A stretch of DNA of 64,000 nt from Escherichia coli (GTDB lineage: Bacteria > Pseudomonadota > Gammaproteobacteria > Enterobacterales > Enterobacteriaceae), in the NCBI RefSeq assembly GCF_024223415.1, contig NZ_CP100500.1; one strand, given 5' to 3'. How positions within the stretch are numbered: position 1 is the first letter of the stretch; each line of letters starts with the position of its first letter. The notes beneath the pieces were generated by a model, which worked only from the letters and a program-made list of their open reading frames with translations, did not search any database and was not told where the DNA came from. This document shows, in pieces, positions 25,823 to 48,052 of the stretch. The translations under genes were made by a program, and so were the position numbers.

Positions 25823-26084
25823 ATCAGAAACATTTTCCCGTCAGATGCCCGACGTATTCTGACGGTTAAGGGGCTGCAGGAGACGATATGCTCATTCCTG
25901 CAGCCCTGATTATTTCCCCTCCCTCCACAGGAAAAACATGCTCCCCTGTATTTTATACCAGATATTTTTATCTTTATCGTCCGGCCACCTTATGGTATAA
26001 AATCCGCAAACGGCAAGGCTGAACAGTACCTCGTTCCGGGTGGTTTGAGACTTTTCTGCCTTAGCCGTTTTCTGATCTTCAACC

Positions 26085-26303
26085 GTGGTATCAAAAATGA
26101 AAACAAAACAGGACTGGTTATTTCAGTTACGGCGATGCTCCAGTATTGAAACCCTGGAAAAAGTTATTGAGAAAAATCATTACTGCCTGACCCCATCAGA
26201 AATGGAAACATTCAATTCAGCGGCAGATCACCGGCTTGCAGAACTTAAAATGAATAAGCTTTATGACAAAATTCCGCCGTCAGTCTGGAAATATGTTTAT
26301 TAA
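26085..26303 (+). CDS. Hha/YmoA-family nucleoid-associated modulator
   Basis: 72 aa, near-collinear with Hha (…LRRC…[11 protein letters not shown]…[20 protein letters not shown]…). Confidence 0.8.
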
Positions 26304-26585
26304 GTCTGCGCCACATACGGGACAAATTCCCGGGGATACGTGACATATGCCGGTAACACAATCACAAATATCGCGGTTGTATCAGCAATTGTTGATACAA
26401 CGAAAAATTTGCACCTGACAGCGGGCAGAAATGAACAGGAAGAATCAAAGCACAACAACTTATTACAAAACTCCGCACTGCCATATCCTGCTTTCAGGAC
26501 CATGCTGATTTTCATGACTGTTCCGGCAGGAACAGTCATTACGCAAAAAACTCCCCGGTAAAACCATTATCTGCCCTCCTGAAAA

Positions 26586-26774
26586 TCACTTCTTCGCAAG
26601 AGTACAACTGAGTTCAGGTATTTTGAGCTGAACACGCACTTTTTTCTGCGCCGGAAAAAATTTACGGTATTCCTCTTCCTTCAGCACTTCACCGGTATTG
26701 CGCCGCCAGATAAATGGTATGCCATCACTTTTCTGAATAACTGCATTAATCTGATAACAGCTCATTTTTCTCAC
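26586..26774 (-). CDS. Hypothetical small protein (62 aa)
   Basis: ORF only; overlaps the 3' end of the GrlA-like gene. Confidence 0.25.
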   Translation of the reverse strand: MRKMSCYQINAVIQKSDGIPFIWRRNTGEVLKEEEYRKFFPAQKKVRVQLKIPELSCTLAKK

Positions 26775-27195
26775 TTTGTTCCGGCGGCATTTCTCCTGCC
26801 CGACGCGAACACATCCAGCGACGCAGAGCCGTCAGCGTGTCTTCTTCCTGAACGCTGCAGGATTTTGGTGTGGCTGGCTGTGGAGCGGGTTGCCGGTAAC
26901 GTATCCCTGAGGCTGGCACAGACGTCACGCCCGGAGATACTGACAGGATCCGGATGGCACGGATTTTCTGACGGTGCGCATCAATCAGGTTAAGTACTTC
27001 GCTGTCAATGAACTCCCGCGCATCGCGGGTAATGAAAAGCAGAATATCGTGTGCCTCTGCCTGGCTGATGCCGAATGCACGCGCAACACAGATTTCGGTC
27101 AGCAATACTTTTTCTCTCAATCCCCACATGGCAACAGCGACATGCAGCGGAGCATGCTCAAAATCACAGACAATTCCCGGTAACATTTTTCTCAT
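26746..27195 (-). CDS. CaiF/GrlA-family transcriptional regulator
   Basis: PLHVAVAMWGLREKVLLTEICVARAFGIS fits the CaiF/GrlA winged-helix pattern. Confidence 0.5.
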   Translation of the reverse strand: MRKMLPGIVCDFEHAPLHVAVAMWGLREKVLLTEICVARAFGISQAEAHDILLFITRDAREFIDSEVLNLIDAHRQKIRAIRILSVSPGVTSVPASGIRYRQPAPQPATPKSCSVQEEDTLTALRRWMCSRRAGEMPPEQSEKNELLSD

Positions 27196-27603
27196 GCCAT
27201 CATCACCACACTAATCCCGCATGACTGGTAATACTTTAACTTCACACGCCATGGACGACAATATGCTGTAAAATCGCATCGTGCCGATCACTGATTCGCA
27301 TCGCATCATCCAGCACATTTACTTTTCCCGGTGTTGAAAGGAAGTATTTGTGGCAGCTTGTTGAAAATACAACTCCACCGGTCAATCCCCAGGATATAAA
27401 GACAGCAACGATAATGCAGGCCAGCCCCGGAGAATAACCTGCAAGAAAAAATGATCCCCCACCCGGTATTAAGGCTGTATGGGCAGGTTAACACGGTGAT
27501 TACTGTCAGTTAATACCATCACGCCGGCCCCAAAAACCTGTGGGCAAGGGGATGTCGTGCGGATCACTGAGCAAATTCATCGGAATGCGCAGCAAAGCAC
27601 TCC

Positions 27604-29955
27604 TCAGAATAACCCCCCTTCACCATCAGCCACAATCCTGTATCCCATCGCCTTATAACCCCGCTGGCGTTTATCCCACATTCTGAGCAGCACAGGATAC
27701 GCTTTATCCACAAAATCAATGATCCTGACATCGCTTTTACCGGTATACTGTCTGTGCAGACGCCCTGCATACTGCTGTAACGTCCCTTTCCATGACACCG
27801 GCATCGCCAGAATCAGCGTATCCAGCGGTGGGTGGTCAAATCCCTCACCAATAAGTTTACCGGTTGACAACAGAATGCGGGGAGAATCCTGAGGAAGCGC
27901 ATTTAACTCAGAAATCAGCATTGTACGCTTTTTTTTCGATAACCGGCCATGAAGCACAAAGGGTGACAGGTTCAGTGAATGCATTACTGATGCTATATCA
28001 TCCAGATGCTCTTTTCGTTCAGTCAGTACCAGAACTTTACGTCCCTGCGCGAATGCCTTCATGGCTTCTTCAGCTATCGCCACAGTCCTGTCATGATCAA
28101 GCGCAATTTCTCTGAAAATATCCTGGATCCCCGCATCCGATGGTAAATGTCCGGATGTAAAACGGAAACGGAGCTGCACTTCCAGATTATGCGGACTTTC
28201 CTTCGGGCTGGCCGCTGTGTGACGAAGGGCACCACAGTACATAAAAATGATGGGATGCAGACCATCCCGTCGGACAGGCGTTGCCGTCAGTCCCAAAAGA
28301 TATCTGGCATTCGTTTCCTTCAGAACAGCAGAAAATGAAAACGCTCCAGCATGATGGCACTCATCAACTATGACTTGCCCGTAATTCCTGACCACAGGTG
28401 CAACTTTGCCATGCCTGAACAGAGACTGCACAACAGCAATATCAATATTGCCAGAGGGGTTATGTTTGCCCCCTCCGATAATACCAATACCGTCACTGGT
28501 CTGCAGAAATACCCCAAGCCGCTCCTGCCATTGCTTTAATAACTCAGTCCGGTGTACCAGTACAAGTGTATTAACTCTCCGTCGTGCAATCACAGCCGCG
28601 GCGGTAACCGTCTTACCAAAAGCCGTTGGCGCACAAAGTACACCAGAATCATAACGGAGCAATACCGAAACAGCCTCTTCCTGATCCGCTCTGAGGTTTC
28701 CCGTGAACACAGCATGACATTCTGTACCTGCAAATCGTTCATCGATGATTTCTGCAGCAATATTGTTGTCACTGAGGAAGGATAATGCGCTGTCCAGACA
28801 TCCACGGGGTAACGCAATGTGTTGCGGATAATTTTCCGCACAACCTGTAACCCGGGGTTTATTCCAGACAGACATTCTCATGGCCTGAGCCTTATAAAAC
28901 ACAGGATTAGGAAACGCAGCCAGTCGAATAAGCCGGTTGGCCAGCGGCTGAGGTAATTGCGCTTTTTCGAAATAGATCTGGTTTGCCAGCGTGATTCTCA
29001 GCGGCTCAGCAACAGAAACCGTCAGTTTGTTTTCTGATGATGTTTTCCACGGCGTGCTCAGGTCTTCGTCGGTAAAGTTCACATCCAGTGGATGAATACT
29101 TCCTGTAGCCCGTAATATTGTCGGTTCTATATCCTGCACATTCATCGGGATCACCGATGCCAGGAATGCCCACTGATCAGGATAAGGCTGAAAATTCATA
29201 TCAACAAAAACACTGCCTCCCGATTCACGCGGTCTTTTTTGCAGAGGTAACGCGATGAGATTGCCGAATCCCCCTTTTGGCATGGTATCCTGATTAGGAA
29301 ATAATCGGTCATAAGAACTCAACCGCAGTTGCCGGGAACGGCTACACGTATGGCTGATAACGGCTGTCCCCAGTCGGCGTGCATCACGGGCCGAAACCCG
29401 GGAAGCAAAAAATATCCAGACATGCGCCCCCTGACGTGAGCGGGATATTTCCAGCGCTGCGGGTATCCCCAGCTCATCACAGGATCGCATGAATGCGGAT
29501 GCATCCTTCTGCCATTCAGCATCATCAAAATCAACAGCCAGAAAATAACAGGAATCGTCTTCCAGCAGCGGATATACCCCGACTGTATGGTAGCCTGCGA
29601 GATGACGGTAAATGACAGGATCGGATACAGGTAGCAACTGACGGTGTGCGCAGTCACCGCATTTTATCCCGGGCTTACCGCAGATTCCCGGCTTCCATTC
29701 GTTAGCACAGGCCGGCGAATACCCTGATTTACCACTGACCTGACTTTCCCAGCGAAGGGCCCATACATCATCACGCCCACGAAACAACCGACGAAATAAT
29801 GAAACCTTCTGTTCAGCAGATAATGCGGAAACATGATGTACAGAACGCTGCGGTTTACGTCGCCATTCAATCCCGTGAGCTTCAAGTAATGAGGCCAGAC
29901 GGGCATTTTCTGCCCTCAGTGCAGCTAATTCGTCGTTATCAGATTGACACACCAT
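27604..29955 (-). CDS. Putative primase-polymerase / SF2 (DEAD/DEAH-type) helicase fusion protein
   Basis: C-terminal helicase motifs I AFGKT, II DECHH, III TAT, VI QYAGRLHR; N-terminal zinc ribbon CGKPGIKCGDCAHRQ and acidic DFDD motif. Confidence 0.75.
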   Translation of the reverse strand: MVCQSDNDELAALRAENARLASLLEAHGIEWRRKPQRSVHHVSALSAEQKVSLFRRLFRGRDDVWALRWESQVSGKSGYSPACANEWKPGICGKPGIKCGDCAHRQLLPVSDPVIYRHLAGYHTVGVYPLLEDDSCYFLAVDFDDAEWQKDASAFMRSCDELGIPAALEISRSRQGAHVWIFFASRVSARDARRLGTAVISHTCSRSRQLRLSSYDRLFPNQDTMPKGGFGNLIALPLQKRPRESGGSVFVDMNFQPYPDQWAFLASVIPMNVQDIEPTILRATGSIHPLDVNFTDEDLSTPWKTSSENKLTVSVAEPLRITLANQIYFEKAQLPQPLANRLIRLAAFPNPVFYKAQAMRMSVWNKPRVTGCAENYPQHIALPRGCLDSALSFLSDNNIAAEIIDERFAGTECHAVFTGNLRADQEEAVSVLLRYDSGVLCAPTAFGKTVTAAAVIARRRVNTLVLVHRTELLKQWQERLGVFLQTSDGIGIIGGGKHNPSGNIDIAVVQSLFRHGKVAPVVRNYGQVIVDECHHAGAFSFSAVLKETNARYLLGLTATPVRRDGLHPIIFMYCGALRHTAASPKESPHNLEVQLRFRFTSGHLPSDAGIQDIFREIALDHDRTVAIAEEAMKAFAQGRKVLVLTERKEHLDDIASVMHSLNLSPFVLHGRLSKKKRTMLISELNALPQDSPRILLSTGKLIGEGFDHPPLDTLILAMPVSWKGTLQQYAGRLHRQYTGKSDVRIIDFVDKAYPVLLRMWDKRQRGYKAMGYRIVADGEGGLF

Positions 29956-30115
29956 ACCCTGAATCCATATTTCTTATAACCTGCCCCGGGATACTGCGCT
30001 GCACACGACAGAAACTCGTGTCGTCCCCCGGCACTGACAGCTCCCCGTACCTTACGATACATTAACGTTATCCCCTCACGATCCCTTACGGCAATCTTGC
30101 TTTATTCTCCCCCTT

Positions 30116-30679
30116 TCAGTTGTGTCGCGGTCGGCCGCGGTTACTTTTTTCAGGTAGTCTGCTACGCATCAGAATAATACCGTGTTCTTTCTGATCCTGT
30201 TTAGCCAGGTAGCTAAGGGCGTAACGTAAGTCATCTACCGCAGATTTATTACTATAGCGAATTACGTGATCAATACGCACCGGGTATTTATCTTTAGCCC
30301 GGCACAGGTGAAAATAACCATCCCCTTCCGTGATCCGCCTCCAGATATCTCCCAGCAGCCTGGATATCCGGTAAGATTTCTTGTGCCGTTGTCCATCCAG
30401 ATAGCCGATAAAATGAATATGAAGTCCCTTGTTTTGTGTATATTCCATAACCCAGTAATATCCTGCCAGAATCGTTTGGGTTTCGCTAAGTAAGCGCTGC
30501 ATCTCAATACACATACTGTGCTTACAGGAATGACCGAAACTGGGCGTGTCTTTCCTGTAGGCAAAATCAATTCTGAAAGGTAACAGTTTAGAAAAACGTT
30601 GAAACATACCTTCCATGTGTTTATTCACGTCTTTCAGAATCGTGAAATTCATTTCGTAATTGGGATTGGCATTGTACAT
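30116..30679 (-). CDS. HUH-motif protein, inovirus Gp2-like / YfjJ-YagK family
   Basis: GLHIHFIGYLD HUH-type motif; alignable with ORF 14155-14748. Confidence 0.65.
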   Translation of the reverse strand: MYNANPNYEMNFTILKDVNKHMEGMFQRFSKLLPFRIDFAYRKDTPSFGHSCKHSMCIEMQRLLSETQTILAGYYWVMEYTQNKGLHIHFIGYLDGQRHKKSYRISRLLGDIWRRITEGDGYFHLCRAKDKYPVRIDHVIRYSNKSAVDDLRYALSYLAKQDQKEHGIILMRSRLPEKSNRGRPRHN

Positions 30680-31628
30680 TTCATAGTCCTTACTTTATGA
30701 AGGTTGCAGGAAGAAGGAATTACGTAAATACTGAGGGCACAGAAAGGCCGTACCACGGCATTAATAAAAGAGATAACCAGCAGCACAGACAACCTGATAA
30801 AAATGTTTTGTATTACCTCATTACAGCAACGAGGTAATATTTCAGAATACAGTGAGACTCTCTTAAACTGAGGACCAGTACGACTTACAACGGTAAAAAC
30901 ACACCTCATATAATTGAGTTTCAGGAAGCACCATTCAATTACTGTCTCCCTGACATTCACAAAAGTCAGTATCGGGTAGCTACAGGCAACATCGCTATTG
31001 ATACTCCCGCACCATTAAATAAAAACAGAGACTCTGCAGAGAGAGCCTACAGATATTTAACCTCTCCACATAAGAATAATGGTATACAGTCCCCACACCA
31101 TCAAAAGATTGCTTCAGGATAATATTTCCTCATACCTGTAAACAGTACTGAGCCATAACACCAAAACTGAAGATAACATGCACTGATACGTACTTAACAT
31201 CAGTTACGTATCAGACACACATCAGTGGATTAGCTCCCTCAACATCACAGCGAACATTATAATTTATCGCACTACTAAACACTCTCTGGCTGTATGAAGG
31301 CACATGCATTACGCATCTACGGAATGGTCAGCATACAGAGGAGTGACATTGTAAACAGATAACAGATAACATAACTCCCATTAATAATACTAATTAACCT
31401 AAATTATTTATTGAATACGAGAACAATGAGGGAACCTCCTCATCCAGGACTAATGCCAGCAATATCCTGAGCAACACTCTATCCAATAGTAAATAATGGT
31501 TATAACTGTTATATTTACTGACTGACCTGTACCAGCGTTCTGTAATACAACAACGCTGAGATGCTAATGGCATAAGTCTCCTCCGCTATTTACGGAGGAG
31601 ACTATATGTTACTCAACGATTAAGTCAT

Positions 31629-33062
31629 TCAGAGGTCAAAGTTAGGTGCGACATACCACGTTTTATCGTCCATAAGCTGTACAACTCTGTTTTGCTCATA
31701 CAGTAAATCCAGTAACCAGTTGAGTTTATCTTTTTTACGGAAACGATTCGGGCCACGCTGTAAAATGTCATTTTTTTTCATACAGGGAACCCCCTTCTCA
31801 ATGCAATAGCTTTTTATCCAGTTAAAAAGTTCAAGCTCCTCCGGAATGAGTCGCATAGTTACGGTCTGGGCAGAGTTTTCAAACGTTAACGGACTGGATA
31901 ACCGAATATACTCATTACCGTACCATATTGCTAATTCTCTCGCCATTTCAGCTGTGTAGGGGGAAATGTCACCTTCCTCACCGCTGACATGGTGAATAAG
32001 CCCAGCCAGTCTTGCCATATACTCTGCATTTTTAGCAGCATATTCTCTGAAGTCTCTTAAAGGCCCCAGAACCGCCATCTTCGATTCCACATCGTTGTAA
32101 TAGTCCGTCCAGATTCTGGCTGCCTGAGGAGAAAAGTGAAGGCAACGTCGCTCTCCCCTCATAGCCAGGCTTTCATCAATAAGTTCATTGATCCTCTTGT
32201 CAAATAACTCCTGATACTGTGATGAATAATTATCTCCGGTTATTATCCTTGTCCCCTGCGTTGATGTTGGTTGACACATCAAAAACCGTGCATGATGTCC
32301 TGATGTCTTCACCAGTTCTTTTTTTCGTGTACAAAAACCTTTGTGGTAAACATCAGGCTGAATCATCACCGATATCGTCAGTCTTGGGTCCTTCAAAAAA
32401 ATCCCGGGAGATGATTTCCTGTCGATGAAAAGGGAACTACCATCCCATAAAGAGTTAAGTATTCCCAGTTTGCTCATTGCCCGGCTGTCAAAAATCACCC
32501 CGCCCTCACTGGATACAAGAGCAAAAGAGCGATTGCTGTCGGAATAATATTTAAACATTCCCTCTGTCGTCGTATCATTAAAAATTGTCCGATTTATCTG
32601 CGGTGGAACAGGACAACTATTCAGATGCATTCTGAGCTCTGATTCTGTTGCTTCATACTCTTTACCGGCACGAATCTCTTTATGAAGTTTTGACTCCAGT
32701 GCCTTTTGTTTTTGCTCCCATATTTCCTTTTCTGCACTGTAATTCTCAACCAGTTTCGCATATTCTTCCGCAAGAGTTTCATCCCTGAGATAAAATGCTT
32801 TCATAAAAACTTTATCCACGGTCGTTTTCCTTTCGCCGGAATCAGCCAGAATCATAGCGTAAAGATTAGAGGGGCCACGTAAATTACCAGGTCTGCACAC
32901 ATCAATCTGATTCTGACAGGCAACTGACACCGCTGTTAATGCTGCTGTTGCAACCAGAGCCCCGGGCGCCTGTGTATTTTGCTGAGTTTCAATTATTGCA
33001 TTTCTCACCAGAGATGTTAATGCATTTATCGGAAAAGGGGCTTCCTGTTCAAGTAAGGACAT
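31629..33062 (-). CDS. DUF3987-type protein (YfjI-like)
   Basis: Position and composition match CP4-57 YfjI; start set at internal ATG 33062 (GAGG RBS); hairpin 31576-31606 downstream. Confidence 0.7.
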   Translation of the reverse strand: MSLLEQEAPFPINALTSLVRNAIIETQQNTQAPGALVATAALTAVSVACQNQIDVCRPGNLRGPSNLYAMILADSGERKTTVDKVFMKAFYLRDETLAEEYAKLVENYSAEKEIWEQKQKALESKLHKEIRAGKEYEATESELRMHLNSCPVPPQINRTIFNDTTTEGMFKYYSDSNRSFALVSSEGGVIFDSRAMSKLGILNSLWDGSSLFIDRKSSPGIFLKDPRLTISVMIQPDVYHKGFCTRKKELVKTSGHHARFLMCQPTSTQGTRIITGDNYSSQYQELFDKRINELIDESLAMRGERRCLHFSPQAARIWTDYYNDVESKMAVLGPLRDFREYAAKNAEYMARLAGLIHHVSGEEGDISPYTAEMARELAIWYGNEYIRLSSPLTFENSAQTVTMRLIPEELELFNWIKSYCIEKGVPCMKKNDILQRGPNRFRKKDKLNWLLDLLYEQNRVVQLMDDKTWYVAPNFDL

Positions 33063-33321
33063 AAATACCTCAATTTTAGTTAATAAATCAGTAAAGTAGC
33101 AGATATTCCCGCTATAATAGCCAAAATAGCTGCTATGCATAGCCGATATGTTCTGAAAAATACAGTAATCGGGCATACCTGATGTTGAACAAAACGATAA
33201 GGTTGATTCAATTCAGCCTGTATTATTAGCTACGTAACATCATTCACATTGCTCACTCCTGACATCTTCTGATGATTATTTCAACGACGCCTTATTCATG
33301 GTCGTTTTCCTTTTTCATGAA

Positions 33322-33543
33322 TCAAAAAACAACCATAGTGTAAATATTCATGGGTTCACGAAAATTATCTAATCTGCACACATTAGTCAGATCCTGACGG
33401 GAAATTGACATATCTGTTAATACTGGCATTGCCATCAGAGTCAGAGGTACTTGTTTATTATATTGAGCTTTAATCATTGCCTTTCCCATCATTAATGATC
33501 GCGCATATACTGAATACGGCGTATCCGGTTTTATGTAAGACAT
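33322..33543 (-). pseudogene. Truncated tandem duplicate of the YfjI-like N-terminus (73 aa)
   Basis: DNA and protein alignable with the first ~90 codons of 31629-33062 (…VCR..N.R.P.N.Y.M…), then frame break and stop. Confidence 0.5.
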
Positions 33544-33718
33544 AAATGCTTCCTTTGTCGTAATGCGTGTCGGTTATAGCAGCAATTACCGCTACAATAG
33601 CGACAATAGCTGCTCTTTCAACAATGAATGCTGGAAATTCTGTTTATCAATTAAACTTCTGGCTAAATTATTCTTATGCTTCTTTTTCCTCCTGAGGTGA
33701 TCACGTGATGACAAAAAC

Positions 33719-34015
33719 TTATCTGCTCATGGTCATATCTGAAGAAAGCGTATGTCGCACTTCGTCATTAACACCTTTTACTGCTGATCTGGCTGGTACA
33801 GTATGTAAAGTAAGCCATTCGTCAATAGCTGATGAACGCCAGCCCACAGAACCACTACCAAGACGTACCGGCCTTGGGAAGGTTGCATCGTAATATTTCG
33901 ATAACGGATTCATTTTTTCGTAAATTGTCGAACGAGATATACCTAACAATTGGCTCAGTTCAGGCATCCGTAAGATGCGTGAAGGAGTCCAGCAGTGTCC
34001 GGATTGATCTGGCAT
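33719..34015 (-). CDS. alpA: AlpA-family phage regulatory protein
   Basis: …ILRMPELSQLLGISRSTIYEKMNPLSKYYDATFPRPVRLGSGSVGWRSSAIDEWL… matches the AlpA fold; start at internal ATG. Confidence 0.7.
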   Translation of the reverse strand: MPDQSGHCWTPSRILRMPELSQLLGISRSTIYEKMNPLSKYYDATFPRPVRLGSGSVGWRSSAIDEWLTLHTVPARSAVKGVNDEVRHTLSSDMTMSR

Positions 34016-34223
34016 TTTATCCCCCTTAGTGTGGTGAACTGTCGTTACAGTTTGTATTCCTCGGGTAAATTTTTCTGCGTAAAAAAATGGGTTGAGCAAA
34101 AAGACAATAAACAACTAAAAATCAATATGATAGGAAACAACAGCATTATTGTTATTTTACTTTTCCCTTATCGCTGTCGATTCTCATTATCATTCATGGC
34201 AAAAAAACAGTAAAAGAGGCCCT

Positions 34224-34971
34224 AGTAATGACTCCGGTCAGTAGTACATGTGCTTCGATAAATGAACCAATGGCTTTTCGTTAATTTCCACGGAGCGTGA
34301 AAAGCAAATCGTTTTCAGGGATGGGAGTTTGATGTGAGTACGAAGTATCAGATTGTTGCGCTCAATGCGCCGGGTAAATATCCTGCCGACAGGATGCTTA
34401 TCCTGTGGTACTTCTCTGGTATAACTGCACCAGTTTTCACTGGTTATCATGCCTGAGGAGAATGGCTTCAGAAGTTCCGGCAACTCACTACATGTTTCAT
34501 CAGTACGAGGACCAAAAGTGTAAGCCCGCACACCGCCAGATTTGGTGTTATACGCATACCAGAGCCAGTGCTGACGAGCTTTGTTTCCGACAAAGCTCCA
34601 TTGTTCATCAAGTTCGCATATAAGCGCCACATCGGCACTGGCGACTGGAGATGTGGTTACTTTGCATGGTGAGCGTTTTTTAAAGTGCGAATGACTGTGT
34701 TGATACCCACCTTCAGTGTTCTGGAGGTATCGCGAACCCCGGTTCCGTTATGAGCCATTTCAACGATTTGCTCTTTAACACTTGGTTTTCGGGCTTCGCA
34801 GGTGTAATTCAGTTGAAATACACGTTTGCAGGAGCGGCACTGGAAACAGTGCTGTGACCGTGACGGTACACTTTATCGGAATTACAGCGGGGACAATGTA
34901 CGGTAACTGTTGCCATATGGACTCCGGATACCAACAGAATACCCCATTAATCTGCCCCCGGAAGTCATCCC
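34224..34971 (-). mobile_element. IS1-family insertion sequence, divergent copy with frameshifted insA
   Basis: Terminus AGTAATGACTCC at 34224-34235; InsA-like start at 34916; A6C frameshift motif before insB'. Confidence 0.7.
34238..34630 (-). CDS. insB: IS1 transposase InsB' segment
   Basis: ICELDEQWSFVGNKARQHWLWYAYN…RTHIKLPSLKTICFSRSVEINEK matches IS1 InsB. Confidence 0.75.
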   Translation of the reverse strand: MALICELDEQWSFVGNKARQHWLWYAYNTKSGGVRAYTFGPRTDETCSELPELLKPFSSGMITSENWCSYTREVPQDKHPVGRIFTRRIERNNLILRTHIKLPSLKTICFSRSVEINEKPLVHLSKHMYY

Positions 34972-35111
34972 GGTGCCTTCTGACATAATCTGTTAATACA
35001 TGAATTATTGCCCTGTTCAGAAAATATTAATTAAAAAATGAAAACCAGTTAACAGAAAAGCCACATGACATAATGTTAAAATTTTATATCGTGCAATAAA
35101 AGGAGAATGTT

Positions 35112-36938
35112 ATGTACAATTTTATCACTATAATGTATGATGTCTTTTCATGTTTTGGTGTTCTGGCTAAAAACCAGAATATCCGTGACATCCGAAATAT
35201 TAAAAACTTTTCCTCACATCAACATTCACTGGCCGACATGTTTGATGAATTAACATACATTATTGACAAAGAACAGGTACTGAGCACAGAACAACGAAAA
35301 GTTATATTCAGGAGATATGAAGATCTGTATGTTAAACTCATGCACTATTCTGTTTTTACAGACAAAACACATCAAATAATAAAACAAAAATATTTTAATG
35401 ATGTTGTTCCAATGATTCTCGCGCTCGACATCAGGAACACATATCGCCCGGATAATGAGATGGCATTTTACTATCATATCCATTCTTTTCTCACTCAGAT
35501 ACCGGATAATGAGGATGATATATATCATGCTGTAAGGACATATATGAGAAATTATGTTAAGTTATGTTTATCCGGATACACACCAACGAATGCGCATTTC
35601 AAAAATATCTTTGATGGAGTATATGAATTCATTCGTAATATTCGCAAAAACAGTACACCCGGAAAAACAAAACTTATTGCAGCTATCAACATATGCAAAG
35701 AAGCCTGTAAATATCTGCTTTGTTTAAGTGATAAAGACAAGGAAATAATATTTTCCGACTTAGATAAAATTCAGGTTGCATGTTATTCTCTCACTATATT
35801 ACTGGCTTTCGAAAGACGAACATCATTAACAAGTAACCTGGCAACTTTATATAAAATGCTGATAAACGAAAGAGAAGTTTCAGAATATGAATGTCAGCAA
35901 TTATATTTAATCAACCCAATAGATGTAATGAATATACTGAACAAATACATATATTACTTCCCTGGTGAGAATTCACCTCTTTATACACTGAAAATTGACA
36001 GTGCATTATCGTGGGATGCCATTGATGCAATACGAGACTATAGTATTTCTGATATTTATCTTTATCCTGAACAAAAAACAATAAATTGTATCGTTGAGAT
36101 TGAAAACATTGTCTTTGGCGGTTACATTTATACATTGAGCGACGGCGTCACATTACAAAATATGGAAAACACTTTAAAAGATTCCTCATGTCATTATGTA
36201 TTAAATGGCTATACAGAATTTGTTAACTGTTTAAGACAACTTACTTCAGGAAAGACTGAAAGTGTTCAGCGTACCATTAATAAACTGGAGTACGAAAAAT
36301 TACCTTTTGGATTTATCATTGCCGCGTTTGCTATATTAAAAATAGCATTTAAGATAAAGTTCAGTAAAAATCATGTAAATACCAGGGCATTATTAAATGA
36401 CATCAGTTATTTTATGACTTATCAGGGCGAGTCCATTAATCTTATTTCACTGGATCATGAATATCCAGAGTTCCGTCTTCAAAATGACACAAATACATAT
36501 TTATTGGGAAGGATGATATTTCTATATAACTCAATGATCTATAAATTCAGAAACTGCCAGGAACATGAAACCAATAACATTAACTCAGTTATGATAAATA
36601 ACCTATTACAGGAAGTTGATATAGCCCTTGGTAAAATAAATGACATTATAGACAGCAGAAACATATCAGTCCCCCATGAACTGGCAAATATTCTTATCCA
36701 CGAAAAAATACTTACAACACGTGAAAAAAAAGGAAACCTGATAAGCCTGTTTGATGGATTCACTTTATTCCATTGTGTTGGAATGATAACCTTTCTTATC
36801 CATTACCTCAGAACTCCTGAAGAAAAAGTAGAAAATGTATTTATGTTATATGGTGCAGATAAAAACAATAAACTACGCAGAAGACTGATTTATGATGCAC
36901 TAGAAATAATTCAGTCTCAGCAGGAGATGAAACCTTAA
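35112..36938 (+). CDS. Hypothetical protein, 608 aa, AT-rich orphan (no recognisable domain)
   Basis: AAGGAG six nt upstream of the ATG; composition far more AT-rich than flanks; hairpin 36962-36986 downstream. Confidence 0.8.
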   Translation: MYNFITIMYDVFSCFGVLAKNQNIRDIRNIKNFSSHQHSLADMFDELTYIIDKEQVLSTEQRKVIFRRYEDLYVKLMHYSVFTDKTHQIIKQKYFNDVVPMILALDIRNTYRPDNEMAFYYHIHSFLTQIPDNEDDIYHAVRTYMRNYVKLCLSGYTPTNAHFKNIFDGVYEFIRNIRKNSTPGKTKLIAAINICKEACKYLLCLSDKDKEIIFSDLDKIQVACYSLTILLAFERRTSLTSNLATLYKMLINEREVSEYECQQLYLINPIDVMNILNKYIYYFPGENSPLYTLKIDSALSWDAIDAIRDYSISDIYLYPEQKTINCIVEIENIVFGGYIYTLSDGVTLQNMENTLKDSSCHYVLNGYTEFVNCLRQLTSGKTESVQRTINKLEYEKLPFGFIIAAFAILKIAFKIKFSKNHVNTRALLNDISYFMTYQGESINLISLDHEYPEFRLQNDTNTYLLGRMIFLYNSMIYKFRNCQEHETNNINSVMINNLLQEVDIALGKINDIIDSRNISVPHELANILIHEKILTTREKKGNLISLFDGFTLFHCVGMITFLIHYLRTPEEKVENVFMLYGADKNNKLRRRLIYDALEIIQSQQEMKP

Positions 36939-37122: not shown

Positions 37123-38325
37123 TTATTTATTCATAATCTGAGACATCACATAATCCGCCCATGCCTGCATCATCGGTACACGCTGCTCCAGTAGATCAGT
37201 ACGATGATATGCCGCCTCAACCTTATTTTTCAGCGTATGAGCGAGCGCCCTTTCAGCCAGATCCCGCGAATACCCCTGCTCACTACACCAGTCCCTGAAT
37301 GTTGAACGAAAACCATGTGCCGTGGCGACTCGCCCCGGAATATCACTGACGGCTTTCTTTTTACGCAGAAAACTGGTCAACACCATATCTGAAAGGATCT
37401 GCTGCTTTCTGGGTGAAGGAAACACCAGTTCATCATGCAGACCACGTATATTTTCCAGAATGTAAATAGCCTGTCGGGATAAAGGAACACGATGCTGTAC
37501 CCTGGCTTTCATTCTTTCTGCTGGTATCGTCCATATCTGCTTATGAAAATCAATTTCAGTCCAGCGCATTCCCCTGGCTTCACCCGAGCGGGTTGCTGTA
37601 AGTATCACCATTAATAACAATGCGCGGGTAACATTATAGGGTTCATCGGTATACACACTGGTCGCCACAAAAAGCGGTAACTGCCTCCATGGCATTGCGG
37701 GTTGGTGTTCATCACGTCCTCTTGTCTGCTGGGGAAGCAAATGATCAACCACATCCACAGGATTTGCCACACAAAAACCATGTGCCCATCCCCACTGCAT
37801 AACAACATGAATGCGCTGTTTAACCCGGCTTGCCGTTTCTGACAAAGTTAACCAGACTGGCCGCAGTGTTTCTGCCACGTCCGCAGCCGTAATCGAATCC
37901 AGCGTTTTCGCTCCCAGTTGAGGAAAGGCGTAATTCTCAAGCGTCGATAACCACTGCCGGACATGCTTTGGATTTTCCCATCCAGGAGACAGTTCTGCAT
38001 GTACACGTCTGGCTGCATCGGCAAATGTTGGGATAACAACTTTTTCAGCCTCAGCCTTTTTAATCTCCAGAGGATCATCACCAGCAGCAAGTTGCTCTCG
38101 CATTATCCGGGCAGTACGTGCAGCTTCAGCAATGCTGATCTCAGGGTAAGTTCCCAATCCAGCATTACGCCTTTTTTGTGTCACCGGACTTACATAACGA
38201 AAAACCCATTTACCCCGACCCTTTACTGAAGAAGGATGAAGGGTCAGTCCTGTAATTCCCCCATGGGGCAATGGTTTGTCATCAGGTTTGATATGCCTTG
38301 CTTTCGTATCCGTCAATACTGCCAT
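37123..38325 (-). CDS. int: Tyrosine-type site-specific integrase (P4/CP4-57 IntA-like)
   Basis: IntA-like N-terminus and C-terminal catalytic region (…HGFRSTFRDW…, …LAHTLKNKVEAAYHR…). Confidence 0.9.
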   Translation of the reverse strand: MAVLTDTKARHIKPDDKPLPHGGITGLTLHPSSVKGRGKWVFRYVSPVTQKRRNAGLGTYPEISIAEAARTARIMREQLAAGDDPLEIKKAEAEKVVIPTFADAARRVHAELSPGWENPKHVRQWLSTLENYAFPQLGAKTLDSITAADVAETLRPVWLTLSETASRVKQRIHVVMQWGWAHGFCVANPVDVVDHLLPQQTRGRDEHQPAMPWRQLPLFVATSVYTDEPYNVTRALLLMVILTATRSGEARGMRWTEIDFHKQIWTIPAERMKARVQHRVPLSRQAIYILENIRGLHDELVFPSPRKQQILSDMVLTSFLRKKKAVSDIPGRVATAHGFRSTFRDWCSEQGYSRDLAERALAHTLKNKVEAAYHRTDLLEQRVPMMQAWADYVMSQIMNK

Positions 38326-38485: not shown

Positions 38486-38499
38486 CCCCCTCACCGCCA
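38486..38499 (+). other. 3' remnant of tRNA-Ser (serW-type att core)
   Basis: CCCCCTCACCGCCA matches the last 14 nt of E. coli tRNA-Ser(GGA); the remainder of the tRNA is absent upstream. Confidence 0.5.
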
Positions 38500-38543: not shown

Positions 38544-38692
38544 CATTTTATCTGCCTGTACGGCAGTGAACATGGTGGGCGGGTGGAGTATGTTACCAGT
38601 GAATTTCTAAGCTGCCTGTACGGCAGTGAACGTTTGCTGCAACCGCTAGCCAAGACGGTAGGTTTTTCTAAGCTGCCTGTACGGCAGTGAAC
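38544..38692 (-). CRISPR. Orphan type I-F CRISPR mini-array (3 repeats, 2 spacers, no cas genes in window)
   Basis: Two exact copies of TTTCTAAGCTGCCTGTACGGCAGTGAAC (38604-38631, 38665-38692) plus a degenerate copy ending at 38571; spacers of 32-33 bp. Confidence 0.8.
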
Positions 38693-38903: not shown

Positions 38904-41180
38904 TTAATGCGCTGCTTCCGCCTTGTGCTTTTGTGCACTCTGAAATCCGTAAGTCAGCTCATTTTTCTCTTTATCCAGCGCGACGGTGACCTGACCGCCG
39001 TCCACCAGCGAACCAAACAGCAGTTCGTTGGCAAGCGGTTTTTTCAGGTTGTCCTGGATGACACGCGCCATCGGACGAGCGCCCATTGCCCGGTCGTAAC
39101 CTTTCTCGGCCAGCCAGTTACGCGCTTCCTGGCTCACTTCCAGAGAAACACCTTTCTGATCCAGCTGAACCTGCAACTCGACGATGAATTTATCCACCAC
39201 CTGATGGATCACGTCAGTTGACAGATGATCGAACCAGATAATGTTGTCGAGACGGTTACGGAATTCCGGTGTAAAGATCTTCTTGATCTCTTCCATCGCA
39301 TCGGTGCTGTTATCCTGGTGGATAAGACCAATGGATTTGCGCTCAGTTTCCCGTACCCCGGCGTTAGTGGTCATCACCAGTACCACGTTACGGAAGTCCG
39401 CTTTGCGTCCGTTGTTATCGGTCAGCGTACCGTTGTCCATCACCTGCAACAGAATATTGAACACGTCCGGATGCGCTTTCTCGATTTCGTCCAGCAGCAG
39501 CACCGCATGTGGATGCTTGATGACCGCATCAGTCAGCAAACCGCCCTGATCAAAACCAACGTATCCCGGAGGCGCACCAATCAGACGGCTGACGGTATGG
39601 CGTTCCATATACTCGGACATATCAAAGCGCAGAAGCTCAATGCCCAAAGCTTTCGAAAGCTGTACCGTCACCTCTGTTTTCCCGACCCCGGTAGGACCGG
39701 CAAACAGGAACGAACCGACCGGTTTATGTTCGTGACCTAAACCTGCACGCGCCATCTTAATGGCTTCAGTCAGCGCCTCAATGGCTTTATCCTGACCGAA
39801 GACCAGCATTTTCAGGCGATCGCCGAGGTTTTTCAGGGTATCGCGGTCACTCTGAGAAACACTCTTCTCTGGAATGCGTGCAATACGGGCCACCACGGAC
39901 TCAATATCCGCCACATTAACGGTTTTCTTGCGTTTGCTTACCGGCATCAGGCGTGCGCGAGCGCCCGCTTCGTCGATAACATCAATCGCTTTATCCGGCA
40001 GATGACGATCGTTAATGTATTTCACCGCCAGCTCTACCGCCGCACGCACCGCTTTTGCGGTATAACGCACGTCGTGGTGCGCTTCATACTTCGGTTTCAG
40101 GCCATTGATGATTTGAACAGTTTCTTCGATCGACGGTTCAGTAATATCAATTTTCTGGAAGCGACGCGCCAGAGCACGGTCTTTCTCGAAAATGTTGCTG
40201 AACTCCTGATAGGTTGTCGAACCAATTACGCGAATTTTACCGCTGGAGAGCAACGGTTTGATTAGGTTAGCCGCATCGACCTGACCACCAGACGCTGCAC
40301 CCGCACCGATAATGGTGTGGATCTCATCAATAAACAGGATGCTGTTAGTGTCCTGCTCCAGCTGCTTGAGCAACGCTTTAAAACGTTTTTCAAAGTCGCC
40401 GCGATATTTTGTGCCCGCTAACAGAGAACCGATATCGAGAGAGTAAATCGTACAGTCAGCCATCACTTCCGGCACATCGCCCTGAACAATTCGCCAGGCA
40501 AGACCTTCTGCAATCGCGGTTTTACCGACACCAGATTCCCCCACTAGCAGCGGGTTGTTTTTACGGCGACGGCAGAGAACCTGAATAGCACGCTCCAGCT
40601 CCTTCTCACGACCAATCAGTGGGTCGATTCCGCCCACGCGCGCAAGCTGATTCAGGTTCGTCGTGAAATTCTCCATACGTTCCTCCCCACCAGCTTGTTC
40701 TTCGCTGTTTGGCTGGCTGCCAGGATCAGAAGACTGTGTCGGCTCGTCTTTACGCGTGCCATGAGAGATAAAGTTCACCACATCGAGACGGCTGACTTCA
40801 TGTTTACGCAACAGATATGCCGCCTGCGACTCCTGTTCGCTAAAGATAGCGACCAGAACGTTTGCACCGGTAACCTCATTGCGACCGGAGGACTGGACAT
40901 GGAAGACCGCACGTTGCAGTACACGCTGAAAACTCAGCGTCGGCTGTGTGTCGCGCTCCTCTTCACTGGCAGGCAGAACGGGTGTGGTTTGTTCAATAAA
41001 GGCTTCCAGTTCCTGACGGAGCGCAACCAAATCCACAGAACACGCTTCCAGCGCCTCCCGGGCAGATGGGTTACTGAGCAGCGCCAGTAACAAGTGCTCG
41101 ACGGTCATAAACTCATGACGGTGCTCGCGCGCTCTGGCGAAAGCCATATTTAAACTGAGTTCCAGTTCTTGATTGAGCAT
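38904..41180 (-). CDS. clpA: ATP-dependent Clp protease ATP-binding subunit ClpA
   Basis: Matches E. coli ClpA throughout as recalled ([24 protein letters not shown]…); two AAA+ modules. Confidence 0.95.
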
Positions 41181-41210
41181 AGGCACCTCCCCCAATTTTT
41201 ATGCCTGCAT

Positions 41211-41637: not shown

Positions 41638-42554
41638 ATCATTTAGTTAATTAGTCTTTATTTTTCATTATGTTGCAAATAACAAGCCCGTCAAAAACAG
41701 TGATATTAACTACACCATTAACTACACCGCTTCACGAACAATATCGAACAACCGCGAACAAAGATCAACACGCTTTAATCATTATCATTTTCCGGCTATC
41801 CGTCATGAAGCTGGTGGATGATCTGCGTGGTGATTTCCACCATTCAGAGCAGGTGCGGTCATCATGACCATGCCATAACAAAAACCCCATATTCGTGGTT
41901 TTTCTGTGTCGGGGCTATTCTGCTGTTGCCGTGCTGGTGGATATTCTCCGGTATGCGGCTCCCCATATCGGCATCAGGCCCACCAGCGTGAAGCGTTTTT
42001 CATTTTTCGCGGGTATAAAAAATCGATGGGGCGGGCAGTCCTGAAGACGTCAGGGTACAGAGATTTGACCCGCCCCTCCCTGTGCATGAGCACAATAAGT
42101 AACCGAAGGCGGAATTCCGCCCTCGGTACTTACATATGAGAAACGATATTTCTTCCACCGATACCCTTTATTTGGGTATCGCGAGTAAGCCCCAAAATCT
42201 GGGTGTTACTCTTACTACCCAAACTACGGGTAGTTTCCGTAGTTTCATGGTCGAGTTGCAAATCTGCAACTCACCCACCAGCCAGCGCAATGTCGCATTA
42301 TCAGTCCTCAGATGTGAGGGATGTAGCCAGCTTTTCCCCCAGTGGGGATTATCCAGTTACCGACGGTTTAACCGCCTGTACCAGCACAACGAAAGAATTT
42401 GCGGGTAGCTTTAAACTACTCACAACATCCCATCTTACAGGCCGTGCCTTTCTAACTTTTTACAATGCAATAAGTCAGGTAACGCTATGCGTTCCACCGT
42501 GTACACCGCGCCAGTAAAACCCCCGGATTCGTGGTTTTCCTGAATATCAGGAAT

Positions 42555-42929
42555 CTACCGCCGCAACCGTTCCGGCTTCTTCCACTGATAAGTGTTTTTC
42601 GCGCTCTCCCTCCGTTGTTGAGAACGGCGACGGTATGCCAGCAACTCAAGGACTCTGGTTCGTATGTTGCGCATATCCACGCCGTTAAGCTCAATACCAT
42701 CACGGCGCATCACCTCAGCAACAACACACGCGTAATTTTCGGCTATCACGCTGTCCGGCTGCGTGGCCTCCTGTTCGCCAGCCTGCTGGCTGATTCCGGT
42801 AATACTGCGGATTATCCCGAGCGCTTCGGTCTCGGTCATGGTCATGGCCTCCATAGTGATGGCGGGTCCTCCTTGTGGGGTGCCCTGCCACGGGGCGGGA
42901 GCATCGCGGAAAAAGGCTAGTTTTTGCAT
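42555..42929 (-). CDS. Hypothetical protein (PICI accessory end; start uncertain)
   Basis: ORF only; no motif recognised. Confidence 0.35.
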   Translation of the reverse strand: MQKLAFFRDAPAPWQGTPQGGPAITMEAMTMTETEALGIIRSITGISQQAGEQEATQPDSVIAENYACVVAEVMRRDGIELNGVDMRNIRTRVLELLAYRRRSQQRRESAKNTYQWKKPERLRR

Positions 42930-43090
42930 TTTTATTCGTTATCACCACCAATGCAATATATTGATATGACTTGATGTTTTATTTTTCGGTGTCGATTTCG
43001 ATTGTTTTTTGTTCATCACTGACGCATAACGCCCACCAGCGCAACGCTGAAAGCCAGTCAGTAAACTGGCTTCGGTCATTGTGCACTACG

Positions 43091-43618
43091 TTACTTGTCT
43101 TTATCCGGCTGAAACTTATCAGGCACATTTCCGGTAGTTTCCATCAGATAATCGGACAGCATTCGCGGGATGTTTTCATCAAGTTTTGTGCATGCGTTAC
43201 AGGCTCTGACAACTTCTTTTTTCAGGCCATCCAGCATGGCGGGGGTCATCTGTGGGAAGCTCCTTTGCATAGTAAGCGGGAGGCTGTCCATGATTGATGA
43301 AATCTGACTCGCCAGTTTTGAAAGCGCGTACATGCAAAACTCTGTATCAATCACGTCACCGCGATCGCGCTCGTTTTTAAGTTCCTGCGCCTCCGCCTGT
43401 GCTGTCAGTAATCTGATCCTGACTCGTAAAAGTTCATCATCGTCAATCTCGCCTTTGTCGTTTGTAATCTGGCTGATTGCATTGTTAACCCGATTATCTA
43501 TTACACTGGCGACATCATAAAACGTCTCACGGCCCTTACGCTCGACGGGAATCACTCCCCACTTATCGAACGCAGTGGCGCTTACTCGGCAGCTTTTCGC
43601 CATGTTTTTTTTATTCAT
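43091..43618 (-). CDS. Small-terminase (lambda Nu1-like) homologue, candidate packaging-redirecting protein
   Basis: Collinear with lambda Nu1 as recalled (N-terminal HTH region, then …LTAQAEAQELKNERD…DTEFCMYALSKLASQISSIMDSLPLTMQRSFP…). Confidence 0.8.
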   Translation of the reverse strand: MNKKNMAKSCRVSATAFDKWGVIPVERKGRETFYDVASVIDNRVNNAISQITNDKGEIDDDELLRVRIRLLTAQAEAQELKNERDRGDVIDTEFCMYALSKLASQISSIMDSLPLTMQRSFPQMTPAMLDGLKKEVVRACNACTKLDENIPRMLSDYLMETTGNVPDKFQPDKDK

Positions 43619-43699
43619 CAGGTGCGATTTCATCAATACCCCCACTTAATTAATGCTTCAGGTTGGTGTGTTGGTGTTATCTTTCCATTTTTATTCATA

Positions 43700-43840
43700 G
43701 AGATAGAGCGAACAACAAAACCACCACCAACCCGAAAAGGCTCATAAATAGCGAAAATCCGCAAGGTCGACGCCCCGTAACGGGTCCACATGCCGGAAAG
43801 GACCCATAAAAAATAAAGCCGGACTACTCCGGCTTCGTCT
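43700..43840 (-). other. Lambda-type cos site (cosQ-cosN-cosB-like)
   Basis: Minus strand reads GGGTCCTTTCCGG…GTTACGGGGCGTCGACCTTGCGGATTTTCGCTATTTATGA, near-identical to the lambda cos region as recalled. Confidence 0.7.
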
Positions 43841-43858
43841 CTTCATGTGGTCAGGGTT

Positions 43859-44443
43859 TTATGCTTTCCGTACGCCCGAGGAACTGGCATTTTTCAGAAT
43901 AATATTATGCCCTGCTGGTGGCTTACCGTTATGCTTATTTTCTGCCTTCATGTTTCTGCGCTCCTGCTGTTTTTTCTTCATCTCATCCAGTCGCTTCCCC
44001 GCGTTCAACTGGTGCTCCTGTGTCACCTCCCCGCACGGATGGCCTTTCAGGTCGTAACGCACGCCACCAGCCATCAGGGAACGGTAATATCGCACTGAAC
44101 TGACATAATACGCCAGCGTTGCGCGAAGCGCTCCCTGACCTAATGAAATACCTCTCGCAGTAATATCCTCCATCAGGTCATCAAATATGCCAACCTTAAG
44201 CGGTCTGGGCGATTCCTGGCTGAAAAGTTCAGGCCAGAGCGCGGCAAGGCGTTCAACGCGTCTGATATTTTTTTTCCGGCTCTTTTCTGATTTGCGTTTT
44301 GCTGCCGTCTTCTGTTGTGTTTTCTGCTCGCGGCTCTGCTTTTGCGCTGGTGTGGTTTTATCCGGCTGTTCAGCCTCCTGCGTCTTTTTCTGCGGTGTGC
44401 CGTATATGCCTTTTGGTTTTCGGTTAATGGTCAGCTTTGTCAT
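43859..44443 (-). CDS. ProQ/FinO-domain RNA-binding-like protein
   Basis: Basic Lys-rich N-terminus followed by LAALWPELFS…PLKVGIFDDL… typical of ProQ/FinO domains. Confidence 0.55.
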   Translation of the reverse strand: MTKLTINRKPKGIYGTPQKKTQEAEQPDKTTPAQKQSREQKTQQKTAAKRKSEKSRKKNIRRVERLAALWPELFSQESPRPLKVGIFDDLMEDITARGISLGQGALRATLAYYVSSVRYYRSLMAGGVRYDLKGHPCGEVTQEHQLNAGKRLDEMKKKQQERRNMKAENKHNGKPPAGHNIILKNASSSGVRKA

Positions 44444-44522
44444 GTTCTCCCCCTTTGTGCTGTTCCACCAGCGGCATCTGCTACCCCGTGTCGCTCCCGC
44501 TGGTGTCGTGTTTCCCCGCCTG

Positions 44523-44843
44523 TTAATAACCGTCATCATTTACGTTATCAGGGTAATCACGCCATATTTCATCAGTAAGCGACGGTAGCCCCATCTGTTG
44601 TATTGTCCTGTCTGCGGCCCTTCTGACTGCGTGAACATCATAACGGTTTTCAGGTATCGGGCGCTTTGCCTTCCTGATACATTCCCTTGCTCTCATTGCC
44701 GCAAGTTCTCTGTGCCTGTCTTCCTGAAGAGTAATCATCACATCCTGCCACCTTCTGGCAGCCCGTCGCCACAGTCCCCTGCTCTCGAGTTCTTCTGCTG
44801 TCGCGTCGCTTATTGTCCGGTTCTTCGGTGTGCTGTTGTTCAT
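44523..44843 (-). CDS. PerC-family transcriptional activator-like protein
   Basis: …AEELESRGLWRRAARRWQDVM… PerC-like signature. Confidence 0.55.
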   Translation of the reverse strand: MNNSTPKNRTISDATAEELESRGLWRRAARRWQDVMITLQEDRHRELAAMRARECIRKAKRPIPENRYDVHAVRRAADRTIQQMGLPSLTDEIWRDYPDNVNDDGY

Positions 44844-44860
44844 GTTGCTCCCCGCCTGAT

Positions 44861-45525: not shown

Positions 45526-45569
45526 TTTTATTTTTACCCCCTCGTTTAAAAAGTTTTGTGTTGTGGTGC

Positions 45570-45805: not shown

Positions 45806-45811
45806 CTAAAA

Positions 45812-47856: not shown

Positions 47857-48052
47857 GGTTTTATTTTCCTGTCAGTGATTCCGGCTTTATTCCGGCGCGA
47901 ATACAGGCTTCAGAAAAAAAGCCAGAGAACCAATAACCTCATTATTTCTAAGGCGGCATTGCGATTTCACTTTCCCTTTATCCAGGAATATCAAAACGCG
48001 CCCCGTATAATCAGATGGCACATTAAGCACTACAGGTAAGTGCGCTTCATGA

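Follow-up and report, generated by a model that had tools for sequence, protein, structure and literature searches.

Organization of the locus

The DNA considered here is a 64,000-nt stretch from Escherichia coli (contig NZ_CP100500.1, assembly GCF_024223415.1), called the window below, and its subject is a gene-free gap inside an integrated island, lying between a gene for a HUH-type Rep-like protein (the HUH gene) and a DUF3987/YfjI-family gene (yfjI). The gap occupies positions 30680-31628 (949 bases), from the start codon of the 187-aa HUH gene (30116-30679) to the stop codon of yfjI (31629-33176), both on the minus strand; these are the bounds given by the first-pass annotation. It is AT-rich, as that annotation had said: its GC content is 0.389 (38.9%), against 0.492 (49.2%) for the whole window and 0.485 and 0.424 for the flanking genes. 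Its plus strand is A/C-rich (GC skew about -0.23, AT skew about +0.22). The gap is composite. It consists of the 3' tail of yfjI, a deeply conserved cis element, an Escherichia-specific and little-constrained spacer, and a short conserved translational-control region; about 150 of the 949 bases look functional. The features are as follows.

27604-29955, minus strand: PrimPol (AEP)-SF2 helicase gene, 783 aa (Pfam AEP-TOTE, E = 5.8e-99; ResIII; Helicase_C; PADLOC PrimPol, 443 bits)
30116-30679, minus strand: HUH-type Rep-like gene ("inovirus-type Gp2" or YagK/YfjJ family), 187 aa, with a C-terminal AT-hook, RGRPR
30685-30720, minus strand: predicted hairpin sequestering the Shine-Dalgarno (SD) sequence, in which TAAGGA (30687-30692) pairs with the pyrimidine run TCCTTCTTCC (30709-30718)
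30716-30733, minus strand: proximal conserved box, seen on aligning the 135 nt that precede the ATG across nine genera or lineages
30736-31370, minus strand: Escherichia-specific spacer, about 640 nt, between the AT-rich element and the proximal box
31371-31408, minus strand: conserved AT-rich element, AATTWAGGTTAATTARTATTATTA, the only block conserved across genera (BLAST)
31533-31558: weaker inverted repeat CAGCGTT/AACGCTG (7 bp, 12-nt loop) within the yfjI-linked portion of the gap, read from the sequence and present in minimum-free-energy folds
31575-31585/31593-31603, minus strand: stem-loop with an 11-bp perfect stem and a 7-nt loop, 25 nt past the yfjI stop
31629-33176, minus strand: DUF3987/YfjI-family gene, 515 aa (Pfam DUF3987, E = 4.9e-85), which bears out the earlier naming of the right-hand neighbour

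Of 5,426 complete E. coli genomes, about 1,590 have a homologous gap of 950-1,010 bp (72-88% identity), and no E. coli record inspected has a gene annotated (PGAP) within it. Searches of the gap against 50,697 phage records (blastn) gave no match; the plasmid matches are E. coli records and have no annotated gene under the match. Variation was followed in 50 unique homologues spanning the AT-rich block to the start codon, collected from E. coli genomes and a metagenome scan; the metagenome and Escherichia loci were fished with a 19-nt core of the AT-rich element. Scanning genome contigs with the HUH protein returned three Escherichia loci only. A description of the gap region, of the element or of its link with the AT-hook was not found in the searchable literature.

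The conserved AT-rich element

Conservation beyond Escherichia was assessed at the loci of HUH homologues with 35-69% identity, a comparison independent of the metagenome 19-mer. Each of these distant loci has a long upstream stretch without genes (350-1,450 bp), and the sole DNA that they have in common with the window is the AT-rich element of about 35 nt. On the minus strand of the window it reads AATAATTTAGGTTAATTAGTATTATTAATGGGAGT; its cross-genus form is AATTWAGGTTAATTARTATTATTAAWRGAAGT. The 5' half is an inverted repeat, AATTWA-GG-TTAATT, and the 3' half is ARTATTATTA.

The element lies upstream of the HUH gene and in the same orientation in E. albertii, Erwinia, Citrobacter, Yersinia enterocolitica, Y. 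intermedia, C. braakii (a degenerate copy), Limnobaculum, Rouxiella and three further loci (L119, L120 and L123). It is present in every checked locus with sufficient upstream sequence, three of them checked as blind predictions; the exception is the first HUH gene of Salmonella locus L118, where only 238 nt of sequence precede the gene. A model of the element built on sequence alone (R1) finds exactly one match per locus, always upstream of the HUH gene and on the same strand. In the window this match (30.6 bits, E = 7e-8) is unique, and the model has none at the K-12 yfjJ and yagK loci. A match to the element 20-mer with at most four mismatches arose in 1 of 200 shuffles.

Polarity is constant and distance is not. 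The element is nearest to the ATG in Rouxiella, at 60 nt. Erwinia, the two Yersinia and C. braakii have distances of 130-141 nt, three other loci about 250-350 nt and Escherichia 560-810 nt (50 unique homologues); the longest are those of Limnobaculum, 935 nt, and L119, 1,130 nt. This range of 60-1,130 nt implies that the function of the element is independent of its position relative to the gene. Among the Escherichia homologues the block 31372-31405 has a mean variability of 0.048 with 18% of sites variable, a degree of conservation partly inflated by the use of its 19-nt core in fishing the loci; the four-fold sites of the HUH gene, taken as the neutral reference, have 0.108 and 62%.

Three different upstream contexts occur in Escherichia (the yfjI type, that of locus L008 and that of E. 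albertii), and all of them join at the 5' edge of the element. The PrimPol-helicase gene, downstream of the HUH gene, forms one block with that gene, the element and the spacer in E. coli, and L008 has the same block behind a different upstream context. The joining of differing contexts at this edge indicates that the block of element, spacer, HUH gene and PrimPol-helicase gene moves as a unit.

In Salmonella L118 there are two HUH genes in tandem, at 239-817 (67% identical to the window protein) and 1297-1869 (29%). About 120 nt upstream of the second, whose product has a GRPR tail, lies a half-copy of the element, AATTTAGGTTAATTAAC, corresponding to the inverted-repeat half. The 3' half may therefore exist in variants specific to each paralogue.

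The HUH protein

Nine residues of the protein are invariant in 25 homologues: R36, D38, W76, V77, E79, H87, H89, Y157 and K160. They include the motifs of the HUH superfamily, H87-x-H89 and Y157-x-x-K160, which are kept in all 25 sequences, K-12 YfjJ among them, and the fold is closest to viral Rep nucleases. The description of the left-hand neighbour as HUH-type was therefore right. The RGRPR tail (AT-hook) is invariant or nearly so within this subfamily. K-12 YfjJ and YagK have no AT-hook, and their loci have no AT-rich element.

Outside Escherichia (L110, L114, L116 and L123-L125), the gene after the AT-hook HUH gene is one of the AlpA family and not a PrimPol-helicase gene. These same loci adjoin a "moron" block (YeeP-like GTPase, DUF932, YfjT, antirestriction, CbeA) typical of CP4-44- and CP4-57-type islands.

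The yfjI tail, the spacer and the proximal control region

The yfjI-side part of the gap, 31409-31628, is the 3' tail of yfjI, about 220 nt that travel with that gene. The strong hairpin reported earlier at 31576-31606 lies in it and is real, at coordinates a few bases off: its true position is 31575-31603. It folds at -24.7 kcal/mol, against -7.7 for shuffled sequences (z = -6.9; 0 of 200 shuffles as good). It is kept in 26 unique yfjI-linked sequences and missing from L008 and E. albertii, which have another upstream gene. Of the single-sided changes in the stem, 25 leave a G-U pair on the minus strand and 4 on the plus strand, a bias that fits an RNA stem-loop made from the minus strand. 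The tail after the stem is UAUGCCAUUAGC on the minus strand, and a terminator scan did not list the hairpin: the stem of a Rho-independent terminator is there, but no canonical U-tract. For want of that tract it is called a 3'-end stem-loop and not a canonical terminator; it probably closes the yfjI mRNA, either terminating the transcript or stabilising it. In E. albertii a canonical terminator occupies the corresponding position.

The spacer, 30736-31370, is an Escherichia-lineage insertion under little or no sequence constraint, in effect filler evolving at about the neutral rate. Its distal part (31061-31360) has a variability of 0.112 with 67% of sites variable, and its proximal part (30736-31060) 0.079 with 54%. 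It is T/G-rich on the gene strand, a skew absent from the spacers of other lineages, and no similarity was found to other genera's spacers or to the rest of the window. Local inverted repeats occur at 30811-30839 and 31183-31214, with a palindrome at 31033-31042. Many homologues have single-sided changes that disrupt the hairpins at 30811-30839, 31183-31214 and 30747-30759; compensatory changes are few, and there is no consistent G-U strand bias. As single-stranded DNA the spacer folds at z = -1.9, and the spacers of eight lineages range from +0.25 to -3.0; these scores do not support a structure like a single-strand origin.

Loci of other genera with 60-350 nt here, together with the 152-bp gap of K-12 CP4-57, make about two thirds of the segment dispensable and lineage-specific. 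Absence from homologous elements, which the first-pass annotation had put forward as a point that would tell against its reading, is thus found in part.

Within the spacer the plus strand has TATAAT at 30909-30914 with TTACAA 18 nt upstream, facing into the spacer and away from the HUH gene. On the opposite strand TTGAAT-17-AATTAT overlaps this TATAAT. Both are kept in most of the 50 homologues, as consensus matches only, and are possibly divergent promoters.

The last 56 nt before the gene (30680-30735) are more constrained, with a variability of 0.064 and 36% of sites variable (four-fold sites, 62%). The proximal box reads CAGTATTTACGTAATTCC (GTATTTACGT) in the window and TCAAAAATTACGT in other genera, and its distance from the ATG is fixed at about 45-50 nt. 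It is possibly the -10 region of the HUH gene's own promoter, or a leader element. Pairing of the SD sequence with a CUUCC-type run is predicted in seven of seven genera despite differing sequences and loops, and is not predicted for K-12 yfjJ. The window's own SD hairpin is weak (-7.4 kcal/mol, z = -0.4). From these folds the hairpin is predicted to be a translational brake on the HUH gene.

A candidate recognition site for the HUH protein

The reading that we favour, tentatively, is that the gap is a stretched control or origin region of the HUH gene, with the AT-rich element as the probable recognition or nick site of the protein. Five properties of the element argue for it: strict co-occurrence with the AT-hook subfamily; fixed polarity at free distance; the lack of conserved promoter hexamers; an inverted repeat followed by an AT-rich run; and a 3' half that differs by a single base from the cognate nonanucleotides of viral HUH Reps (PMC7826260). 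The earlier suggestion of an origin or nick site in this segment gains indirect support for the element at 31371-31408, and not for the hairpin at 31575-31603, which belongs to yfjI.

In the proposed scheme, the yfjI message would end in the very stable RNA stem-loop at 31603-31575. The HUH protein would recognise the element (31408-31371), its invariant C-terminal AT-hook binding the AT-rich duplex, and would nick or autoregulate there, which would make the element the equivalent of a double-strand origin. The HUH nickase, the PrimPol-helicase and the DUF3987 helicase may together form the replication module of the island, and we infer that the protein binds or nicks the element and that the module replicates the excised island. 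The spacer of about 640 nt would be an Escherichia insertion with little or no constraint, and the fixed-distance box and SD-sequestering hairpin would hold translation of the HUH gene low.

The layout has parallels in known systems. Rolling-circle origins usually combine binding and nicking by placing a duplex inverted repeat beside a single-stranded target, and in the element an inverted repeat likewise adjoins a putative single-stranded target. The double-strand origins of circular Rep-encoding single-stranded (CRESS) DNA viruses and of pC194- and pMV158-type plasmids are, like the element, short AT-rich cis sites upstream of, and polar to, a small HUH gene whose product has HxH and YxxK motifs. 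Unlike CRESS-type origins, the element lacks a loop-presenting stem of 9-11 bp and may lie more than 1 kb from the gene. It differs from rolling-circle replicons also in that the protein is of the YagK/YfjJ family with an AT-hook, and that the system sits in a chromosomal island, not in a plasmid or virus.

The putative target itself can be compared. Viral HUH Reps have the cognate nonanucleotides TAGTATT*AC and TATTATT*AC, and TAGTATTAT and TATTATTAA of the element are each one base from these (PMC7826260). The element holds TAGTATTAT in the window and TAATATTAT in Erwinia and Yersinia, matching NAGTATT*AC and TAATATT*AC at eight of nine positions, a degree of likeness that may arise by chance in AT-rich DNA.

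The intergenic region of Ff-type inoviruses (packaging signal, minus and plus origins, gene II) is likewise a non-coding, hairpin-containing stretch of several hundred bases directly upstream of a gene annotated as gpII-like. Unlike it, the gap has no phage sequence similarity, its spacer folds at chance level and is conserved within a single genus only, and the protein is half the size of gpII. Also comparable are the yfjI-yfjJ and yagK loci of K-12 CP4-57 and CP4-6, which have the same families (IntA-type integrase, AlpA, YfjI/DUF3987, YfjJ/YagK) in the same order. They differ in their 152-bp yfjI-yfjJ gap and in having no AT-rich element, no AT-hook and no adjacent PrimPol-helicase.

Several points weigh against a recognition or nick site. 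True inovirus gpII is about twice as large as the YagK/YfjJ-type proteins, whose nicking role is putative. A constant upstream position in the same orientation is equally expected of a promoter or operator. Conservation of the core within Escherichia is inflated because the loci were fished with that very 19-mer. The likeness to the TAGTATTAC/TAATATTAC nonanucleotides could be a chance product of AT-rich DNA. There is no shared stem of 9-11 bp: 65-nt DNA folds around the element at nine loci do not go below -4.1 kcal/mol. Finally, the island looks degraded (an IS1 fragment, a duplication of the yfjI 5' end, one attachment-site fragment), so the site may no longer be used here.

The same position and orientation lead to a different account, which we consider unlikely though far from negligible: the element may be the promoter or operator of the HUH operon, perhaps activator-dependent (e.g. 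on AlpA) or autoregulated, giving a 5' untranslated leader of about 700 nt here. The element is invariably upstream of and co-oriented with the HUH gene, a weak sigma-70-like match (TTCAAT-17-TAGTAT) overlaps it, the Rouxiella copy is only 60 nt from the ATG, and an AlpA-family gene is always nearby. The Escherichia leader strand has more G than C and more T than A, a composition that would be expected to hinder the loading of Rho on a long untranslated RNA. However, the -35 and -10 positions are unconserved across lineages, and the conserved core resembles neither hexamer; a position weight matrix scan and by-eye alignment found no sigma-70 hexamer pair conserved across genera on the element. 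A promoter would also have to tolerate leaders of 130-1,130 nt of unrelated sequence, the G/T skew is missing from other lineages' spacers, and terminator-like hairpins on the sense strand are confined to Escherichia. The gene's own promoter is better sought at the proximal box, which keeps a fixed distance of about 45 nt from the ATG.

Two elaborations of a long leader were set aside. An antitermination leader, with AlpA as a Q-like factor, is rejected on the occurrence of sense-strand terminator-like hairpins in Escherichia spacers only, and a skew avoiding Rho as a family trait is rejected because other genera do not have it.

The context also speaks for a recognition or nick site. A 2025 preprint interprets the HUH Rep-like genes of such E. 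coli islands as initiators of rolling-circle replication in satellite-like elements, and it names no cis-acting site (PMC12458937). A DUF3987 homologue is a 5'-3' helicase that works with an AEP PrimPol as the replicase of a mobile element (PMC11724360). It is possible, if doubtful, that the element and the AT-hook HUH protein are a previously undescribed origin-initiator pair driving rolling-circle replication or mobilisation of the common tRNA-integrated int-alpA-yfjI islands of E. coli and other Enterobacterales, the element also marking the recombination joint at which blocks of site, HUH gene and PrimPol-helicase gene are swapped. Islands with the int-alpA-yfjI backbone are pathogenicity and defence islands carrying virulence and anti-phage cargo, present in about 30% of complete E. 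coli genomes. If confirmed, the element would be the cis site of a rolling-circle-type initiator. A candidate site of about 35 nt with a link to an AT-hook would permit direct nicking, binding and replicon assays, and it would serve as a sequence tag for finding such modules.

Non-coding RNA, helicase-served origin and small protein

A long or small non-coding RNA, one of the functions first proposed for the segment, is improbable. It would run in the sense direction from the AT-rich element to a hairpin near 31030, or antisense from the TATAAT at 30909-30914. The perfect form of that plus-strand hexamer, with its TTACAA, speaks for it, as do a terminator-like hairpin and T-run at 31053-31020 (minus strand) and whole-gap folds that beat shuffles on both strands (z = -3.9 and -4.0). 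Such equal scores on the two strands point to inverted repeats in the DNA, dominated by the yfjI hairpin; z drops to -1.9 once the yfjI-side part with this hairpin is left out. Rfam covariance models (cmscan, 26000-36000, both strands) gave no match at E <= 1. The consensus that RNAalifold derives from 46-50 unique homologues is weak on either strand (-20/-13 kcal/mol over 465 columns, with positive covariation terms), and hairpin pairs are mostly broken by single-sided changes, compensation being rare. The spacer evolves at about the neutral rate, and nothing of it is conserved beyond Escherichia.

Also very improbable is an origin of the type found in phage-inducible chromosomal islands (PICIs) and Staphylococcus aureus pathogenicity islands (SaPIs), served by the upstream DUF3987 (YfjI) helicase. 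In those islands an AT-rich melting region flanked by two sets of iterons lies immediately 3' of the initiator gene (PMC6092414). The gap is alike in being AT-rich and non-coding (GC 0.389), in beginning directly at the stop of the DUF3987 helicase gene, and in its int-alpA-helicase island, as in Gram-negative PICIs (PMC6092414). The two iteron sets of PICI/SaPI origins (PMC6092414) have no counterpart in the gap: the search for iterons recommended at the outset found no multi-copy direct-repeat family with a repeat finder, and no k-mer of 5-8 nt above dinucleotide shuffles. Moreover, the part linked to yfjI is only about 220 nt, and K-12 yfjI is followed by a gap of just 152 bp.

The gap holds no credible open reading frame (ORF) on either strand, as had been stated. 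The mechanical ORFs are one of 103 aa with a GTG start (30649-30960, minus strand), one of 59 aa (31394-31573, minus strand) and one of 46 aa on the plus strand. None of them matches Pfam, and they are broken by stops and frameshifts in most homologues. Variability by codon phase is 0.082/0.081/0.073 in the gap, without periodicity, against 0.026/0.012/0.075 in the HUH gene; indels among gap homologues are frequent and mostly not multiples of three. In a tblastx comparison the gap matched neither the genes that adjoin related loci nor any other part of the window. The 103-aa ORF is rejected as a gene on its lack of periodicity and its truncation in homologues.

The 59-aa ORF (31573-31394) is rejected too, with a small residual probability. 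It has an ideal SD sequence, GGAGG, at 6-nt spacing inside the 3' arm of the 11-bp hairpin, and in 23 of 26 unique sequences its frame is uninterrupted over 41-59 codons, with one in-frame 3-nt indel. Its variable sites fall 11/14/12 by codon phase, no codon-position signal, and the majority of changes are non-synonymous. The layout, with a ribosome-binding site buried in a hairpin arm, is curious all the same. Directly after the AT-rich element (31381-31328, minus strand in the window) lies a hydrophobic ORF, MGVMLSVMLSLFIVMSLLFML..., which is 42 aa long in many homologues, 4-22 aa in about half of them and 17 aa in the window, without an SD sequence. It is rejected as a gene on truncation and periodicity, and is probably a by-product of the T/G-rich strand. 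That the gap encodes a small protein (the 59-aa ORF, or the hydrophobic ORF of 17-42 aa, maybe resembling a type I toxin) or is a decayed gene has only a slight chance of being right: the SD sequence and openness of the one and the length of the other in many homologues are outweighed by the mostly amino-acid-changing variation of the first, the shortness of the second in about half of the set, and the lack of a Pfam, tblastx or PGAP match in the searches and genomes inspected.

That most of the gap is neutral filler is a caution against calling long gene-free AT-rich stretches of islands RNA genes or origins solely on their length and composition.

Setting of the island

The island comprises an integrase gene (37123-38325), a 608-aa gene, an IS1 fragment (transposase, 34238-34630), an AlpA-family gene (33719-34114) and a duplicated 5' fragment of yfjI, and further along yfjI, the gap, the 187-aa HUH gene and the PrimPol-helicase gene. 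The partial duplication of yfjI spans 33322-33543, with the repeat 32799-32844/33279-33324, and gives a 73-aa fragment ORF with a weak DUF3987 match. PGAP calls this fragment a pseudogene in several E. coli islands.

Beyond the integrase, at 38487-38499, there is a 3' fragment of a tRNA-Ser-like gene, CCCCTCACCGCCA, followed by a terminator. Three 28-nt direct repeats, TTTCTAAGCTGCCTGTACGGCAGTGAAC, then occur at 38544-38692 with a spacing of 60-61 nt. We take them to match the type I-F repeat of clustered regularly interspaced short palindromic repeats (CRISPR). Nowhere in the window was an intact tRNA gene or a second attachment-site copy found, and on this ground the island appears to be a one-ended remnant at a serW-type site, beside an orphan mini-CRISPR array. 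A ClpA-like AAA+ gene (38904-41195) follows the repeats.

A second integrative element, at about 42500-52000, resembles a P4-like satellite. Its genes include an integrase (50681-51919), a D5_N/DUF5906 primase-helicase (45812-47560), a single-stranded DNA-binding protein (SSB, 44861-45271), a ProQ/FinO-domain protein (43859-44539) and a Nu1-like small terminase (43091-43645).

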